Shown piece by piece: positions 1,087-15,623 of a stretch of 20,000 nt of DNA. The DNA comes from an uncultured virus (IMG/VR IMGVR_UViG_3300044645_001931). Its lineage: Duplodnaviria; Heunggongvirae; Uroviricota; Caudoviricetes. Position numbers and translations under genes: made by a program. The stretch lies in IMG/VR virus record IMGVR_UViG_3300044645_001931; one strand, 5' to 3'. Below the pieces are notes generated by a model that saw nothing but the letters and a program-made list of their open reading frames with translations, ran no database searches and had not been told where the DNA came from. Positions within the stretch are counted from its first letter, which is position 1; each line of letters opens with the position of its first letter.

Positions 1087-1122
1087 AAATTATGTATATT
1101 GGGGATAACAATAGTTATCTCC

Positions 1123-1782
1123 ATGTCGGATTTTTCGCGTGCTATTAACCTAATTCGTAAATACGAAGGGTTTAACGAAAAGGCATACGCAGATCCGCAC
1201 ACTGGCGCAGAGCCATACACCATCGGGTTTGGAACCCAGTTCTATCCCGATGGTTCCCCCGTCAAGCAAGGTCAGCGTTGCAGCCAGGAGAAAGCTCTTG
1301 CGTACCTCTTCCATGAGGTCAGCGTCATTGAGTCCCAGCTCCAGCGGCAGAACCTTGGTCTTGACGACAACATGCGCCAGGCTCTAGTCTCGTTCATTCA
1401 TTCCGTTGGTTGGGAGTCCTTCTTGTACAGCCACATCATTGATCATGTGGAAGCAGAGGATTTTGCTAGTGCCACCACGGAAATGAGCCGCTGGATCTTT
1501 GACCAAAACCATAAGGTTGTTGGTGGTCTCCTGGAACGCAGGAGAGAAGAGATGGGTCTTTTCCTTCGTGACGTAGACACCAGCCCTTGGGCATCAACAG
1601 AAGTCTTGTTGACCGCCTTCCGTAATTACAGTGCTGCTCCCCACGAAGTACGCGCAATCCGTGCTCTGGAGGAACGTATCAATCCTTACATCCTGTCTGA
1701 GTTTGCCAACAGTTTTCGTATTGATGACGACCGATGGCAGGACTTTGCCGATGAGTCCGTCGATCTGATATTTAACGGCTAG
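1123..1782 (+). CDS. Phage lysozyme (GH24 muramidase) with a C-terminal extension
   Basis: LIRKYEGFNEKAYADPHTGAEPYTIGFG gives the GH24 E-x8-D...T catalytic pattern; also ALVSF..VG and GLLERRREE. ATG 1123 preferred over the ORF-track start at 1099. Confidence 0.9.
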   Translation: MSDFSRAINLIRKYEGFNEKAYADPHTGAEPYTIGFGTQFYPDGSPVKQGQRCSQEKALAYLFHEVSVIESQLQRQNLGLDDNMRQALVSFIHSVGWESFLYSHIIDHVEAEDFASATTEMSRWIFDQNHKVVGGLLERRREEMGLFLRDVDTSPWASTEVLLTAFRNYSAAPHEVRAIRALEERINPYILSEFANSFRIDDDRWQDFADESVDLIFNG

Positions 1783-5914: not shown

Positions 5915-5957
5915 ATAAGCCCATTTATAATGAAGAGAAAGCTTGAGAAATAAGTAG

Positions 5958-7748
5958 GTGTCAAACCGTAGGATCAGTGAATTCCCTGCCATCAGTGGGG
6001 GCGAGATCGATGAACAGGACCTGCTAACGCTCGTCCATGTCTTCGAGGTTGACCCCACTTTACGCAACAAAAAAATTACCTTTACTCAATTCAAAGAATA
6101 TCTTAATGAGTATTACGCACCTGCCAGTGGCGCAACCTTCAGTGGTAACGTCACAATCTCAGGGAACCTAACGGTTTCTGGCACTAGCTCATTCAATTCA
6201 ATTACAGCTTCTGGATCTAGTACATTCAGTGGCATTGTAGTTCAAAATAATGCGGTTATTAGTGGTACCGTCAGTGGTCTGACCATTACCGGAACCAACG
6301 TACAAGGCACCAATGTCAACGCAGTCACTGCCACGGTTACGACCGCAACAGGTACGACAAGTGCTTTTACGTCTGGCGTTTATCAAAACCTATCAGGTGC
6401 CACGATTACAGGTGGTATTGTCCGCTCGCCATCTGGTGTATTCACAAATCTGAGCGGTGTCACAATCACTGGTACTACCGTCGCAGCAACCACAGGTACG
6501 TTCCAGGTCCTTGGTACGCCTGTACTGGATGTAAACGGTAATCTTTCCGTTGCTAGCGGACTGACGGTTACTGGCACTGCTCAATTTAGTAACGGTGTTC
6601 AGGTCACAGGAACATTATCTGGAACAACAGTAACTGGATCTACGGCACAATTCACAAGTGTCACTGGTGTATCGGGTGTTTTCACAACACAGTTATCTGG
6701 CGCAACCATTACCGGAAATACGGTACAAACTGCTAATCTCACAGGTGTTTCCGGTACTTTCACAACCAGGGTTTCTGGTGCAACCGTAACAGGCAATACG
6801 GGTGCCTTTGGTAACGTCTCTGGTATCTCTGGTGTTTTTACACAGTTCCTTTCGGGTGCAGTCATTACTGGTGACACCGGACAATACACAACACTGACTG
6901 GTGTATCCGGTACATTCACCAGAGTTTCTGGTGCAACAGTCACTGGTAACACAGTTGCCGCAACGATTGTTTCTGGTGTATCCGGTGTCTTTACTAGTCA
7001 GTTATCGGCCACCACAATTACCGGTGCCTCAGGTGTTTTTACAAACCTGACGAGTACGTCCGGGACATTTACCACTCAAGTTTCAGGCGCAACCGTTACC
7101 GGTAACATTGGTACTTTTACTTCCCTGACGGGAGCAACCGGTACATTTACCACACATGTTTCCGGTCTGCTTGTCACAGGAGACACTGGCAGTTTCACGA
7201 ATCTGACCGGTATCGCAGGCGTTTTCACCACCAGTGTTTCTGGGGCCACAATCACTGGTAATACGATCCAAGGTACGTCTGGCGTCTTTACCAATCTTAG
7301 TGGTACGACGTACACAGGAACAACAGTCAATGCAACGACAGGTATTTTCCAAACACTTGCGGCAATTAACCTTGCTTTTACTAACACGACAGTATCAGGT
7401 GACCTTAATGTCCTTGGTTCTGGTTTTTTTGCTTCTGGTGTTCAGATTACCGGTACCCTTAGTGGCACAACAATTACAGGTACTACGGTTCAAGCAGTCA
7501 CAACCTCCGCAACAACTGGGACATTTATTTCATTAACAGGAACAACAACCACAGGTGTTACTGCAACATTTACAACTGTTTCTGGTGTAACAGTTACTGG
7601 TGCAACCGGTACGTTTACAAACATCACTGGGAGCACGCTTAGGATAACCACGCCATCTGGCGCAACGCCTGCCATTGTGTGTTCTGGCGTTGTTTCCGGT
7701 AGCGCAAGTGGGTTTGTAATCCAAGGTCCACTAATCATTCTTCCGTAA
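5958..7748 (+). CDS. Thr/Gly/Ser-rich repeat fibre protein (putative tail or virion fibre)
   Basis: GTG start; N-terminus RRISEFPAI...DLL..V...NKKITF is typical of phage fibre anchors. It is followed by ~500 nearly uncharged residues with SG.FT...SGAT.TG repeats. Confidence 0.8.
   Translation: MSNRRISEFPAISGGEIDEQDLLTLVHVFEVDPTLRNKKITFTQFKEYLNEYYAPASGATFSGNVTISGNLTVSGTSSFNSITASGSSTFSGIVVQNNAVISGTVSGLTITGTNVQGTNVNAVTATVTTATGTTSAFTSGVYQNLSGATITGGIVRSPSGVFTNLSGVTITGTTVAATTGTFQVLGTPVLDVNGNLSVASGLTVTGTAQFSNGVQVTGTLSGTTVTGSTAQFTSVTGVSGVFTTQLSGATITGNTVQTANLTGVSGTFTTRVSGATVTGNTGAFGNVSGISGVFTQFLSGAVITGDTGQYTTLTGVSGTFTRVSGATVTGNTVAATIVSGVSGVFTSQLSATTITGASGVFTNLTSTSGTFTTQVSGATVTGNIGTFTSLTGATGTFTTHVSGLLVTGDTGSFTNLTGIAGVFTTSVSGATITGNTIQGTSGVFTNLSGTTYTGTTVNATTGIFQTLAAINLAFTNTTVSGDLNVLGSGFFASGVQITGTLSGTTITGTTVQAVTTSATTGTFISLTGTTTTGVTATFTTVSGVTVTGATGTFTNITGSTLRITTPSGATPAIVCSGVVSGSASGFVIQGPLIILP
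6663..7320 (+). repeat. Coding tandem repeat, ~26 aa (78 nt) unit, about 8 degenerate copies
   Basis: Units such as TGVSGVFTTQLSGATITGNTVQTANL / TGVSGTFTTRVSGATVTGNTGAFGNV / SGISGVFTQFLSGAVITGDTGQYTTL. Boundaries approximate. Confidence 0.85.
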
Positions 7749-11449: not shown

Positions 11450-12460
11450 ATGTCAATCAAGCTCACGGACGCTGCTAAGTTCTTTGTAGAAGAACCGCAT
11501 CAAATTGACGCATGGAATTGGCTCCAGTCTCAGTTAACACCTGAGACACTGGAGTCTTTTTCTGTTAAATACCGCAATAAACCAAAACCTCAACCAGAAA
11601 CCGCCAACACTTGGGACGGTGTTCTTGCAGCAGCAAAACAAGCGGGTGCTAAATGGCCTGAATGTGTTGCTGCACAGTGGGCCCTTGAGTCGGGCTGGGG
11701 TAAACACACATCAGGTGTTAATAATTACTTTGGTTTAAAAGGATCTGGCTCTAACGTTAGTACTCAAGAATTCATTAACGGTCAATGGGTCACAATCAAA
11801 GCTGGCTTTATTGATTTTCCCAACCTACAAACCTGTGTTTGTTACCTTGTTGATCGCTGGTACAAAGACTTTGGGCGCTTCAAAGGCGTGAACCGTGCCT
11901 CTAGCAGGAATGAATGCGCTCGTTTACTAGTAAAAGAAGGCTACGCAACTGATCCTGACTACGCCACTAAGTTGATTCAGATCATGGATCGACAGCTCCA
12001 GAACATTGGAGAAAAAGAAGAGGTCAACCCACACAACAACAATTTCAATCCTTGGAGCCCTTTCACGTACAAGATCACGCCTAACATCACGTACGGTGAA
12101 TTAACTTTGAACCAGGAAGCTCGACGTTTTACGAAGCAATATCAATGCGACACAGCAAAAGAACTGTGTTTATTCCTTGAGAAAGTACGTAAGCAGTTTG
12201 GTAATAAGCCATTGATCATTACCAGTGCTTCTCGTCCAGAGCCTATTAACACACAAGTAGGAGGTACTAAAAACAGTGAGCACACCTATAGTGCTCCTTC
12301 CAAGGGAGCTATCGACTTTTACGTTGATGGGGTCAGTGTCTACACTGTGCAAGACTGGTGTGACAAAAACTGGCCTTACTCGCTAGGATATGGTGCACCA
12401 AAAGGATTCGTGCATCTTGGTATTAGAGAAGGCAAACCACGCGTACGCTGGGATTACTGA
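11450..12460 (+). CDS. Multidomain endolysin: N-terminal helical module + GH73 (FlgJ-like glucosaminidase) + peptidase M15
   Basis: AQWALESGWGK, NNYFGLKG and GYATDPDYATKL (GH73); ITSASRPEPIN..VGG...SEH, AIDF and FVHLG (M15 zinc ligands H, D, H). Confidence 0.9.
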   Translation: MSIKLTDAAKFFVEEPHQIDAWNWLQSQLTPETLESFSVKYRNKPKPQPETANTWDGVLAAAKQAGAKWPECVAAQWALESGWGKHTSGVNNYFGLKGSGSNVSTQEFINGQWVTIKAGFIDFPNLQTCVCYLVDRWYKDFGRFKGVNRASSRNECARLLVKEGYATDPDYATKLIQIMDRQLQNIGEKEEVNPHNNNFNPWSPFTYKITPNITYGELTLNQEARRFTKQYQCDTAKELCLFLEKVRKQFGNKPLIITSASRPEPINTQVGGTKNSEHTYSAPSKGAIDFYVDGVSVYTVQDWCDKNWPYSLGYGAPKGFVHLGIREGKPRVRWDY

Positions 12461-12788: not shown

Positions 12789-12806
12789 GGGTATCTCCCG
12801 TTTCTT

Positions 12807-13250
12807 TTATTGTAAGACTGGATTCTTGAAAAAATAAAATGCATCTTTTTCCGATAAGTATTGCCAATTTGGATTACCGTATTTGCTAAAACCTTTGATG
12901 TAAACACGGCGTTGTTTATCTTTTTCTACCGCATCAAACCAAAACCAAAGACTATCCCAATCAGGAATATACTCTTCAATACGTTTTAGTTGATAAAAAG
13001 CCCAATACAAAGGTTGCGGACCTGAATGGCCAGTCATGTTTTTTGATAATGAACGAGACCTTTTATTCTTTTTACAGTTCAGCCAGTCGTTAATTTGACG
13101 CTTTGATTTGCTTACTGCAAGACAAATAAGCCATACGCATGTACTACTTTTTCCATCTGGATTTTGTACATAAACCCAAGGCTTTGCTTGTAGAACAGCA
13201 ACTTCTTTGTTTTTGGTACGTAACGTAAAACGTTTTGCTTTGCGTTTCAT
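12807..13250 (-). CDS. Hypothetical basic, aromatic-rich protein
   Basis: 147-aa AT-rich ORF, ATGA-coupled to the upstream small ORF. Confidence 0.7.
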   Translation of the reverse strand: MKRKAKRFTLRTKNKEVAVLQAKPWVYVQNPDGKSSTCVWLICLAVSKSKRQINDWLNCKKNKRSRSLSKNMTGHSGPQPLYWAFYQLKRIEEYIPDWDSLWFWFDAVEKDKQRRVYIKGFSKYGNPNWQYLSEKDAFYFFKNPVLQ

Positions 13251-13375
13251 CGATCAAATAAATTGTCAAGATCTTCTTGTGCAGCAAAAAAGTCTTCCCA
13301 GTCTTTTTCAGTTGCTTCCGTGTAAACAGGCCTTGGCTTAAGTTCTTTGACCTCAGGTTTCTTCTCTGGTTCCAT
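13247..13375 (-). CDS. Small acidic protein MEPEKKPEVKELKPRPVYTEATEKDWEDFFAAQEDLDNLFDR (42 aa; not in ORF track)
   Basis: Translated by hand; TAATG overlap upstream and ATGA overlap downstream. Confidence 0.75.
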   Translation of the reverse strand: MEPEKKPEVKELKPRPVYTEATEKDWEDFFAAQEDLDNLFDR

Positions 13376-13497
13376 TAGACATCATAAATACGACACCCTG
13401 GTGCGTCAGGGTTTTCCATACAATAACGCAACCACGCAACATGTGGATAATGTTTAGGTGATTTTTTGCGAAACAAAGCAAGTAGTTGTTTGATCAT
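13375..13497 (-). CDS. cp12: CP12-like microprotein MIKQLLALFRKKSPKHYPHVAWLRYCMENPDAPGCRIYDV (40 aa; not in ORF track)
   Basis: YCMENPDAPGCRIYDV matches the CP12 C-terminal motif YC..NP....CR.YD with C-x8-C spacing. Translationally coupled on both sides (ATGA at 13494-13497, TAATG at 13373-13377). Confidence 0.75.
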   Translation of the reverse strand: MIKQLLALFRKKSPKHYPHVAWLRYCMENPDAPGCRIYDV

Positions 13498-14411
13498 GGT
13501 CTGTTAGTCAAAGGTACGAAGAGTTCAGGGAATCGATCAGTGTCTTGGTGTTCCCTCTCCCATGCATCTTGCCATTCTGACAGTGAATGATCGTGGATTG
13601 TGTCGTAATACGCATCATCTCCTACCTCAAGAATGATCTTATAGTTGTCAAAATCACCAACTGGAATGCGCTCACCAATGAGCCATGTAGATCCAGCGGA
13701 AACTGTTACAGTAACACCTGCTTCAATTGTGCAACTTGTTTGAGTAAAGGCATTGGCGCCAGAGGGAATAAGGATATCAGAAGAAACAGGGCTATTAATA
13801 CTTGGGGCATCAATCTCTGTTTCTTGTAAGCAAACAGAACCATCAACGTCTTCTAACTCAAAAAACGTTTCGTCAACAGGAAACTCAATGACAACACCAA
13901 GCTCATACGCGAGTGTTTCGTTGCGTGTGGATGAAACACAAATAAGATAACTGCCGGCACTTAGTGGGTAATAACGATCATCGCCTCGATCCAGGCGATT
14001 GCGCATGTATGTATTGTAAAGATCAGACTGCGCACTCATCACCGTATCTAAATACGGGATGTAAGTTGAACCGTTGGTATCTATCTGAACAGAATCCGCA
14101 TCAAAGATCGGATTGCCTTGGATTGGATTTTTTTCTAAGTCATAGGCAGAAACTTGAATGTACTTGGGACGTGGCGGTCCTTTGGTAAGAATGATCCAAC
14201 CAGGTTCCGCAAGGGTGACAACAAACCAATGATTGAACGTGCCTCCACCAATGCCACCATTAGATGTTTGGTTGGTATCAGCACGCCCAACAACTTTCCA
14301 CTGTGGTCCAAGAGTTCCTTTAAGGTAGCGCAGTGAGGTTTGACTGAACGTACCAAGACTTAAAGGATTATTCTGAGTTCTTTGTGGTTGACTTACCGAA
14401 CTCCTGGACAT
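13494..14411 (-). CDS. Hypothetical beta-rich acidic protein, possibly virion structural
   Basis: Long ORF; likely start is ATG 14411 (MSRSSVSQPQRTQNNPL), whereas the ORF track extends to 14504. Beta-sandwich-like segments (HWFVVTL, YPLSAGSYLICVSS). Confidence 0.75.
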   Translation of the reverse strand: MSRSSVSQPQRTQNNPLSLGTFSQTSLRYLKGTLGPQWKVVGRADTNQTSNGGIGGGTFNHWFVVTLAEPGWIILTKGPPRPKYIQVSAYDLEKNPIQGNPIFDADSVQIDTNGSTYIPYLDTVMSAQSDLYNTYMRNRLDRGDDRYYPLSAGSYLICVSSTRNETLAYELGVVIEFPVDETFFELEDVDGSVCLQETEIDAPSINSPVSSDILIPSGANAFTQTSCTIEAGVTVTVSAGSTWLIGERIPVGDFDNYKIILEVGDDAYYDTIHDHSLSEWQDAWEREHQDTDRFPELFVPLTNRP

Positions 14412-15108
14412 ATGAACCGTAATACAACTCCTGTTCTTCATCATAATCCGGGGTATTTTTGTGTACCAACGGATGTTGAATGGTGTTTTTGTATTGTTGT
14501 TCAACGATAGGGAGAGGTTTATCTCTTAGTTGATTTTGCGCATAATGCATTGACTTCGCTGGATCAAACTCAACGCAAAATGGGTGGATAGTTTTAGGTG
14601 GAAAAGTGCGATTCCAACTTGAGACTAGATGGAGAGGGTTGAGACAGGCTTTGTTTTTGCATGTGCGTGTCACAAACATCTTGCCGACATCACCCCAGGC
14701 GCATTGGTAAATCGCTTTGTGGACACTGATGTTGTCATTAGTCTTGTCGTTATACAACGTGCGGTACGAAGGGAATCGTATGCGTTTGCCTCCTAACCAG
14801 GGGACCTCCCAACACTCATCCCACTCACCAACAGCGATCTGGTTCCAGAGACCCAATAGTCTGGCTTTGTAATTCTTGTTGAGATAGTTAATGTCAAAAC
14901 CACAGGCATTGCCTTGGATCTTGCGCACACATTCATAGCACCACTGCTGTTCTTTATGGCGTATGCGATGGCCGTGGACGCAGTAGTAACCACGATAAAA
15001 ACCGTGTGATGCCAATTCATCAGCATCCATTTCATTGATGTCAGGAATGTACGGAACAATAGAAATTGATTTGGCAGCGTTGATGAGTTGCTTGGTGATG
15101 TCAGCCAT
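14368..15108 (-). CDS. Zn-binding HNH/His-Cys-box-fold protein, probably nuclease-inactive
   Basis: N-terminal FYRGYYCVHGH.IR...CYEC; then ECW..., SVHKAIY and VTRTCKNKACLNPLHL (usual form V.H.C.N..C.NP.HL). Start at ATG 15108. Confidence 0.7.
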   Translation of the reverse strand: MADITKQLINAAKSISIVPYIPDINEMDADELASHGFYRGYYCVHGHRIRHKEQQWCYECVRKIQGNACGFDINYLNKNYKARLLGLWNQIAVGEWDECWEVPWLGGKRIRFPSYRTLYNDKTNDNISVHKAIYQCAWGDVGKMFVTRTCKNKACLNPLHLVSSWNRTFPPKTIHPFCVEFDPAKSMHYAQNQLRDKPLPIVEQQYKNTIQHPLVHKNTPDYDEEQELYYGSYVQEFGKSTTKNSE

Positions 15109-15532
15109 GTTGAGCCTCAGTTGGGTTTTTGGAAACAAAGGAGTAGTTGGTGTATGGATCTCTGAAAACAAGGTTGCCTTCTTCATTCCTGACACGGCGA
15201 CGGTACTTTGGTGCAGGAAGTGTTCTGCGTTGATACAGGGTCAGCTTTAGGCGGTTGTCACGAGCGTTGTTGTCCTTGTCGTGTAGTACGTCTGCATTCT
15301 CCGGATTTGTACCAGTACGCAAGTAGTACACCACTCGATGCGCTGGATATTTTGTACCCAGCAAGGAGATGGTATAGAACCTGCCGTCAGGGCGAAGTAC
15401 CCCAGCTTGATCACCGGGTTCATGAAGGCGGCCGGCTGTCTTCCACTTGAGACCGGAAAGGTAGTCAGAGGTGAGTTCTAGGTGCTCTTGTAGCCACCAC
15501 AGGGGCGGCATTTCGTGATAAGTGCGTGCCAC
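15101..15532 (-). CDS. HNH homing-endonuclease-like protein
   Basis: SGLKWK ... GDQAG ... Y..AHRVVYYLRTG.NP...DVLH....RDNR is the phage HNH layout. Probable GTG start at 15532. Confidence 0.75.
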   Translation of the reverse strand: MARTYHEMPPLWWLQEHLELTSDYLSGLKWKTAGRLHEPGDQAGVLRPDGRFYTISLLGTKYPAHRVVYYLRTGTNPENADVLHDKDNNARDNRLKLTLYQRRTLPAPKYRRRVRNEEGNLVFRDPYTNYSFVSKNPTEAQHG

Positions 15533-15623
15533 TAGGGATAGAGAGGTGCTGAACAAGGAGAGTATACACCGTTACCCAGGTAGAAACCTGTAGTGGCGGG
15601 GTATTTAAAGGTGTCTACATACT

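Follow-up and report, generated by a model that had tools for sequence, protein, structure and literature searches.

A 40-residue homologue of the CP12 tail is encoded by S-EIVl-like freshwater cyanophages

CP12 is a textbook cyanophage gene that shuts down the Calvin cycle of the host. Here we describe a CP12-like gene of only 40 codons in a 20,000-nucleotide stretch of DNA from an uncultured virus of the Caudoviricetes (IMG/VR record IMGVR_UViG_3300044645_001931; the whole of this stretch is called the window below). The open reading frame (ORF), located at 13375..13497 on the minus strand, starts with ATG, ends with TAA and would encode the protein MIKQLLALFRKKSPKHYPHVAWLRYCMENPDAPGCRIYDV, which we call mini-CP12. 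Judged by its profile and motif matches, mini-CP12 is a homologue of the C-terminal tail of CP12 without the half that binds phosphoribulokinase (PRK), and comparative analysis identifies it as a genuine conserved gene of S-EIVl-like freshwater cyanophages that is predicted to be expressed. The window is phage DNA with genes for a tail fibre, endolysin, primase, dCTP deaminase and HNH endonuclease; its DNA occurs in lake-water metagenomes, the record closest to it is a viral contig of 23.7 kb, and the one isolate related to it in the phage collection is Synechococcus phage S-EIVl.

A preliminary description of this ORF, made from the letters alone, had proposed that it keeps only the C-terminal redox loop of CP12 and lacks both the N-terminal cysteine pair and the AWD core, and profile searches bear this out. 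Mini-CP12 matches Pfam CP12 (PF02672) with 26.7 bits (gathering cut-off 22.7; E 9.9e-6), and the match is confined to residues 18-39, which correspond to profile positions 49-70 of 70 (22/70), leaving positions 1-48 unmatched. The same Pfam family is matched at E ≤ 0.01 by all 48 members of our family alignment (A2). Only two cysteines are present, C26 and C35, in a C-x8-C arrangement around P30, and the protein ends in RIYDV, so that its domain of residues 19-40 reads as a helix followed by the C-x8-C loop with RIYDV at the end. The window protein has no AW[DE]..[EDQ] motif, and neither has any of the 54 forms of at most 60 residues that carry the tail. The window protein also has no N-terminal cysteine pair, which is not decisive because the accepted S. 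elongatus 7942 CP12 and the CP12 of phages are likewise described as being without it (PMC9406205).

Among PDB sequences, mini-CP12 is matched best by the 23-residue CP12 chain of 3zdf (E 0.0012, residues 21-39); the same residues match the 77-residue chain of 6gfo/6gve, and residues 24-39 match 3b1j. In the phmmer alignments, window residues 21-39 (AWLRYCMENPDAPGCRIYD) pair with SFQQYCDDNPDAAECRIYD of 3zdf_C and 6gfo_E, and the tail stops one residue past Tyr-Asp just as the CP12 chains do. The conserved tail pattern can be written as aromatic-x-x-Y-C-x3-P-x4-C-R-I-Y-D-x. An AlphaFold2 model built with 48 family sequences (mean predicted local distance difference test score, pLDDT, of 83.7) has helices at residues 2-9 and 18-28 and a C-terminal loop, and its second helix and loop agree with the two-turn helix and inserting C-terminus described for CP12 (PMC6800369). 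When the 40-residue model was compared with the PDB, Foldseek returned no matches and VIA-align (wide) returned only helical look-alikes at Z 2.0-2.3, which are meaningless. A PHROGs search yielded no family for the ORF, and a match to NCBIfam VapC was set aside as chance (sub-threshold at 13.7 bits, the cut-off being 73.6).

The preliminary description had also read the ORF as translationally coupled on both sides, and the junctions agree with this: the ATG of mini-CP12 overlaps the TGA of an upstream 336-residue ORF (gene X) by 4 nucleotides as ATGA, and its TAA overlaps the ATG of a downstream 42-residue ORF by 1 nucleotide as TAATG. Using the 336-residue protein as query in viral contigs, we recovered 32 loci with copies that are 40-100% identical. 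An ORF with the CP12 loop follows gene X in 29 of these (28 complete, 1 cut by the locus end) and is absent after gene X in the remaining loci L023, L027 and L036. Its start lies -4 to +5 nucleotides from the gene X stop in the 28 complete loci, with the -4 overlap in 19 of them and gaps of +1 to +5 nucleotides in the other 9, and in 24 of the 28 the last 1 to 11 nucleotides of mini-CP12 also belong to the next gene. In S-EIVl itself, the equivalent is a 45-residue ORF ending in ..YCEENPSSRSCRIYDV that sits in a 137-nucleotide gap between AHV82134 and a gene annotated as "PurM" (L001 2935..3072 (+), equal to KJ410740.1 about 5931-6068 (-)). Its shortness explains why it was left out of the annotation: the GenBank record of S-EIVl carries no feature for a 45-residue ORF with a CP12 tail.

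Selection on the ORF was estimated from 12 distinct nucleotide versions of the 40-residue form. The median pairwise ratio of nonsynonymous to synonymous substitution rates (dN/dS) is 0.114 (range 0.041-0.288) over 26 pairs, with 40 of the 66 pairs left out for a dS ≤ 0.05 or a value that was not computable. Constraint acts on both halves of the ORF, with a dN/dS of 0.216 over codons 1-20 and of 0.099 over codons 21-40, and variable sites are distributed over codon positions 1, 2 and 3 as 18, 16 and 35 of 40. Stops occur in none of the 12 versions in the frame of mini-CP12, compared with 10-12 of the 12 in each of the other five frames. The preliminary description had made its proposal hinge on conservation of the ORF and of its cysteines, and both hold up: the ORF recurs in 29 of the 32 loci under the low dN/dS given above, and C26 and C35 are invariant in 18/18 diverse members and in 48/48 sequences of the family alignment. 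M1, P30, Y38 and D39 are invariant in the same 18 members as well, and their final residue is V, L or I in every case.

The family is not confined to close relatives of the window. A search of 1.8 billion cluster representatives with the family profile returned 85 proteins at E ≤ 0.001, of which 76 carry the tail motif, each time with a loop length of 8 (76/76). Fifty-seven of the matches are at most 60 residues long (54 with the tail) and form 57 distinct clusters at 50% identity, and the AWD motif of full-length CP12 appears in only 12 of the 85. All ten short representatives that were looked up come from metagenomes, with contigs that reach 147 kb, and one of them is named "CP12 domain-containing protein" by NCBI.

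For a controlled comparison of cells and viruses, a single DNA pattern encoding C-x2-N-P-x4-C-R-I-Y-D-V-stop was applied to 185,579 cellular genomes and 2.9 million viral contigs. The 22 cellular loci consist of 20 cyanobacterial CP12 genes with the AWD motif and 2 without it (70 and 85 residues), and no minis were among them. The 52 viral loci, including 70-residue myovirus-type forms, contain the AWD motif in no case (0/52), which adds a caveat to the premise of the preliminary description that phage CP12 normally keeps the AWD_VEEL region. By a first-start rule, 30 of the 52 encode at most 60 residues, 28 of these 30 have a basic MI(K/T/S).. head, and all 28 basic-head minis come after a gene with a ..FPxxxxPLxNRx-type C-terminus. 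Five further viral loci are 64-residue open frames with an internal MIK.. start, and the rest comprise 8 of the 70-residue myovirus type, 6 of the 80-residue S-CBS4 type and 3 of a 65-residue type with a Cys-rich head. Within the bounds of this pattern comparison, it follows that the terminal ..YDV is the normal ending of host CP12, that the tail-only architecture is virus-specific (the cellular matches being full-length) and that the basic-head mini is a gene of the S-EIVl-like lineage. The recurrence of heads of the form MIKxLLxLFKK had also been considered as convergence, an idea that was rejected since all 28 basic-head minis share the upstream gene and so make up one lineage-specific family.

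S-EIVl (79,178 base pairs) and four large contigs (100, 97, 80 and 76% complete) contain exactly one PF02672 match each, the mini ORF, and none of the five has a match to transaldolase/talC (PF00923) or to psbA (PF00124). In S-EIVl-like phages, no CP12-, talC- or psbA-type gene other than mini-CP12 was found.

The CP12 tail is also found on other viral heads, none of them with AWD. We noted 65-residue forms with four head cysteines (L078, L079, L097), a 50-residue form with a CGC..C head (L092), a proline-rich form of 54 residues (L107) and 80-residue forms of the S-CBS4 gp008 type (L073, L076, L080, L082, L104, L109). Heads of the S-EIVl type (L001, L024; P0014, P0024, P0072) have an extra C-x5-C pair (..ICKLFKRC..) and thereby four cysteines in total, and a third cysteine is present in a 49-residue subfamily (L025-L033); these extra cysteines are absent from the window protein.

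How such a protein might act can be read against the division of labour within CP12, for which residues 55-75 are described as the GAPDH-binding domain that inserts in the active site and residues 1-52 as the hairpin that binds PRK, with an acidic AWDA(V/L)EEL patch fitting into the basic active site of that enzyme (McFarlane et al. 2019, PMC6800369). We consider it fairly probable that mini-CP12 is a GAPDH-docking, redox-stapled plug unable to recruit PRK. Its residues 19-40 would be the disulfide-stapled helix-plus-loop with which canonical CP12 enters the active-site cleft of Gap2, the GAPDH of the Calvin cycle, and a basic head of 18-25 residues would stand in place of the acidic PRK-binding hairpin. 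Once the Cys26-Cys35 disulfide is formed, the tail would dock on NAD-bound host Gap2 in the manner of canonical CP12, block the Gap2 sites that it occupies and compete with NADP(H); the GAPDH-CP12-PRK complex would not be nucleated because the PRK-binding domain is absent. The net effect would be to slow the reductive step of the Calvin cycle by way of GAPDH and to spare NADPH for the phage. That mini-CP12 binds Gap2, that it does so according to redox state and which way metabolism would shift are all points that we infer.

The head itself speaks to the second half of this proposal. The 25 residues before Cys26 of the window protein have a net charge of +6; for the same region, the median is +4 among 54 minis and -4 among 11 full-length CP12 proteins. 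Docking of mini-CP12 on PRK appears unlikely because the region ahead of the loop is basic where full-length CP12 is acidic.

Several observations weigh against a simple inhibitory plug. In the binary GAPDH-CP12 complex of Thermosynechococcus, CP12 is reported to compete with NADP+ and to leave Vmax unchanged, and full inhibition is reported to need the ternary complex, via avidity (both PMC6800369). Because of these binary-complex kinetics, a tail-only protein may on its own be just a weak or modest NADP-competitive inhibitor. The basic head, which is under selection (dN/dS 0.216), is left unexplained by the plug and may add avidity, localisation or a second partner. The position of Glu69 (T. 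elongatus numbering) is another difficulty. This residue is described as clashing with the 2'-phosphate of NADP(H), which makes binding of NADP(H) and CP12 mutually exclusive, and the residue at its position as being needed for complex formation in Chlamydomonas (PMC6800369). By alignment, its counterpart in the window protein is Gly34, and close relatives carry G, A, E or D there; across the family, it is E in 43 of 65 tail forms without AWD and 9 of 11 with AWD, and non-acidic in 22 of the 65. Since Gly34 would remove the described clash, binding of the window protein is predicted to be less sensitive to NADPH, and glycine at this position is not a family trait because relatives have Glu or Asp. 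Finally, the contigs of four RNA libraries over positions 12800-14600 cover 12950-13269, 13247-13372, 13541-13691 and 14194-14500 but none of them lies over 13375-13497, and one run (X16) has no contigs there, which speaks neither for nor against expression.

The kinetics of the binary complex are also compatible with mini-CP12 working as a dominant-negative anti-CP12, a reading that we find rather unlikely. The tail would fill the docking sites of Gap2 so that host CP12 could not bridge Gap2 to PRK, and PRK, possibly together with most Gap2 activity, would stay on at times when darkness or stress would have the host shut the Calvin cycle down. The protein has the tail and lacks the PRK-binding half as this reading would have it, and site occupancy without recruitment of PRK would be the most certain consequence of binding because the binary complex is described as only NADP+-competitive with Vmax intact (PMC6800369). 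The inverted charge of the head (+6 in the window protein, with medians of +4 for 54 minis and -4 for 11 full-length CP12 proteins) fits as well, and it could even bind the acidic PRK-binding helix of host CP12, but this interaction between head and host CP12 is pure conjecture. The lineage also lacks two genes of the T4-like cyanophage toolkit, talC and psbA (0/5 each), and a pentose-phosphate and photosynthesis toolkit is reported to go with cp12 in T4-like cyanophages (PMC3037559). Against this, active PRK would use up ATP and ribulose-5-phosphate, which are wanted for nucleotides in the usual model of phage benefit as presented in PMC5083919. More broadly put, we see a limited chance that mini-CP12 antagonises the host CP12 switch by capping Gap2 sites, with a head that would repel PRK or capture the helix of host CP12 or, in a variant, pin Gap2 to the membrane or to the gene X product. 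If this were true, Gap2 and PRK would be uncoupled from dark and redox shutdown, and a peptide of 40 residues would rewire the switch in a direction opposite to that of textbook phage CP12.

It is quite unlikely, in our estimation, that mini-CP12 is in essence a targeting tag or adaptor whose CP12 tail brings a basic amphipathic head to Gap2, which might then be tethered or clustered at a membrane, nucleic acid or the gene X product, in replacement of the avidity otherwise provided by PRK. The head is conserved (dN/dS 0.216) and predicted to be helical at residues 2-9, a net charge of at least +3 within the first 15 residues is reached by 31 of 55 short forms, the mini ORF comes after gene X in 28/28 basic-head minis and 29/32 gene X loci, and CP12-like tails are described as acting as GAPDH-docking tags on GapB and ADK3 (PMC9406205). 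Amphipathicity, however, is not significant, since the hydrophobic moment of 0.66 in the window protein is reached by 7.8% of shuffles (p = 0.078) and a moment of 0.6 by only 14 of the 55 short forms. Read from the sequence, the hydrophobic run of the head is too short for a transmembrane segment; gene X is without a mini ORF at the three loci named above, and it has no assigned function. Of the membrane tether suggested in the preliminary description, the predicted helix at 2-9 and the value of the moment stand, but the moment is not significant in the comparison with shuffles, and we regard the idea as weak.

A target other than GAPDH, with the disulfide loop serving as thioredoxin decoy, metal binder or ligand of another host protein, would be compatible with reports that CP12 binds metal ions and acts beyond the Calvin cycle (PMC9406205) and with the extra head cysteines of some relatives, such as the C-x5-C pair of the S-EIVl type; yet conservation falls on precisely the positions of the tail that inserts into GAPDH, and no cysteines other than the two of the loop occur in the window protein, which renders such a target very improbable. 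That the ORF is a functionless, decaying remnant of a once full-length phage cp12, as its length of about half the shortest T4-like cyanophage cp12 (213-285 nucleotides as reported in PMC3037559) might suggest, is contradicted by the conservation data (dN/dS of 0.114, a frame intact across loci whose neighbour protein is 40-100% identical, conserved translational coupling and 57 distinct 50%-identity clusters of at most 60 residues) and has next to no chance of being correct.

Table 1. Features of the mini-CP12 locus, in window coordinates.
Feature	Position	Strand	Basis or remark
Mini-CP12 gene	13375..13497	-	ORF listing; Pfam CP12; dN/dS; single open frame
Basic, hydrophobic N-terminal head, residues 1-18 (MIKQLLALFRKKSPKHYP)	13444..13497	-	Without Pfam coverage; AlphaFold2 helix 2-9
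CP12 C-terminal (GAPDH-binding type) domain, residues 19-40	13378..13443	-	phmmer to 3zdf, 6gfo and 3b1j CP12 chains
Cys26 codon, first loop cysteine	13420..13422	-	Read from sequence; invariant 18/18 and 48/48
Cys35 codon, second loop cysteine	13393..13395	-	Read from sequence; invariant 18/18 and 48/48
ATGA junction, gene X stop / mini-CP12 start	13494..13497	-	Sequence; related loci
TAATG junction, mini-CP12 stop / 42-residue ORF start	13373..13377	-	Sequence; related loci
Gene X, upstream partner	13494..14504	-	True start probably Met32 at 14411; AHV82134 is the S-EIVl homologue
42-residue downstream ORF ending ..NLFDR	13247..13375	-	Weak match to phrog_25333

The upstream partner of mini-CP12, gene X, is probably shorter than its listed ORF, as its relatives and its Atlas record begin at the equivalent of Met32. 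Its product has no Pfam, PHROG or NCBIfam match and no PDB sequence match, and its Atlas matches are all below 0.9. The AlphaFold2 model is of low confidence (pLDDT 56) with a beta-sandwich at residues 17-176, a fold of weak likeness to PPC/collagen-binding domains (e.g., 5sv5 with TM 0.66 on target, E 0.011; all E > 0.001). Directly upstream of gene X lie HNH-endonuclease-like ORFs at 14368..15195 (-) and 15101..15556 (-); the start call of at least one HNH ORF is doubtful because the listed ORFs overlap by 95 nucleotides.

On the other side of mini-CP12, the place of the 42-residue ORF is taken in other loci by genes of 42 to 249 residues or by none. The gene after mini-CP12 has 42-46 residues in the window type, 74-87 in L024/L027, 249 in L012/L013 and 296 ("PurM") in S-EIVl, and it keeps a C-terminal ..[FL]FDR / FDFDR / FEFDK ending; the 42-residue ORF may be a shortened form of a longer downstream gene. 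In 14 of the 28 loci (L010, L011, L021, L022, L024-L026, L028-L033, L035), the start of the next gene lies 11 nucleotides inside mini-CP12, and the ATG of these 14 starts arises in another frame from the conserved Tyr-Asp codons (TAT GAY). Further along, an RNA-library contig (run X19) joins position 12823 to 13247, skipping 423 nucleotides with one extra G in between, and looks like a related strain without the 147-residue ORF at 12807..13250, i.e., an indel between strains and not splicing. The window also has two separate lysis-type genes at 11450..12460 (+) and 1099..1782 (+), of which one has glucosaminidase and peptidase M15 domains and the other matches endolysin PHROGs.

To our knowledge, all work on phage CP12 so far has dealt with the 70-94-residue forms of T4-like phages. 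Our literature search found no description of a stand-alone, tail-only phage CP12 of 34-50 residues, of its conservation in the S-EIVl lineage or of its absence from annotation, and the main text of a 2026 preprint on viral CP12 contains no occurrence of "truncat" or "AWD", though its supplements might list short forms (bioRxiv 10.64898/2026.09.10.750766). In T4-like cyanomyoviruses, cp12 genes of 213-285 nucleotides are reported from 15 of 16 genomes (PMC3037559), the CP12 of phage P-HM2 is reported to align over 95.7% of residues (bioRxiv 10.64898/2026.09.10.750766), and phage CP12 has been noted as similar to the C-terminal region of CP12 (PMC3906501). Mini-CP12 shares with these proteins (S-MS29 and S-CREM1 were matched) a phage-borne tail and the lack of an N-terminal cysteine pair (L003). 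The T4-like proteins, however, have 70-94 residues, cover nearly the whole Pfam profile and travel with talC, whereas mini-CP12 has 40 residues, covers 22/70 of the profile and belongs to a lineage without talC or psbA.

Compared with canonical CP12 from Thermosynechococcus (6gfo/6gve) and Synechococcus elongatus PCC 7942 (3b1j), mini-CP12 has the same aromatic residue, Tyr-Cys, C-x8-C loop with central proline and C-R/L-I-Y-D plus one residue, and the CLIYD variant of 3b1j is common to its relatives L015 and L016. It differs in that the acidic hairpin of 50 residues with AWDA(V/L)EEL and the N-terminal cysteine pair are replaced by the basic head of 18-25 residues, and in having glycine where canonical CP12 has Glu69. 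The 23-residue CP12 chain of 3zdf, an entry which we take to show a CP12 chain bound to GAPDH, is of about the length of the tail domain but is a laboratory fragment of full-length CP12. Mini-CP12 would be a natural minimal form that separates GAPDH-binding from PRK-binding, which could be tested with a cheap synthetic peptide.

Among viral proteins, the 80-residue S-CBS4 gp008 type and the 65-residue and 50-residue types with Cys-rich heads have the same tail without AWD, but their heads are different and longer, and they belong to other phage lineages and neighbourhoods; the S-EIVl-type mini is the shortest with 34-50 residues. Outside of viruses, GapB and Chlamydomonas ADK3 are described as carrying the CP12 tail as a portable module for docking on GAPDH (PMC9406205; PMC3906501). 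Like mini-CP12, GapB (of the land-plant A2B2 GAPDH) and ADK3 end in the CxxxPxxxxC tail and do not have the PRK-binding half, but there the tail is fused to a full enzyme, whereas the viral mini is nearly all tail with a head devoid of any Pfam, PHROG or NCBIfam domain. The CP12 tail is a portable module that phages, too, graft onto different heads, a theme that recurs across the viral forms seen here. In mini-CP12, a widespread lineage of freshwater cyanophages probably carries an overlooked host-metabolism gene for an interference with carbon fixation that is simpler than that of known phage CP12.

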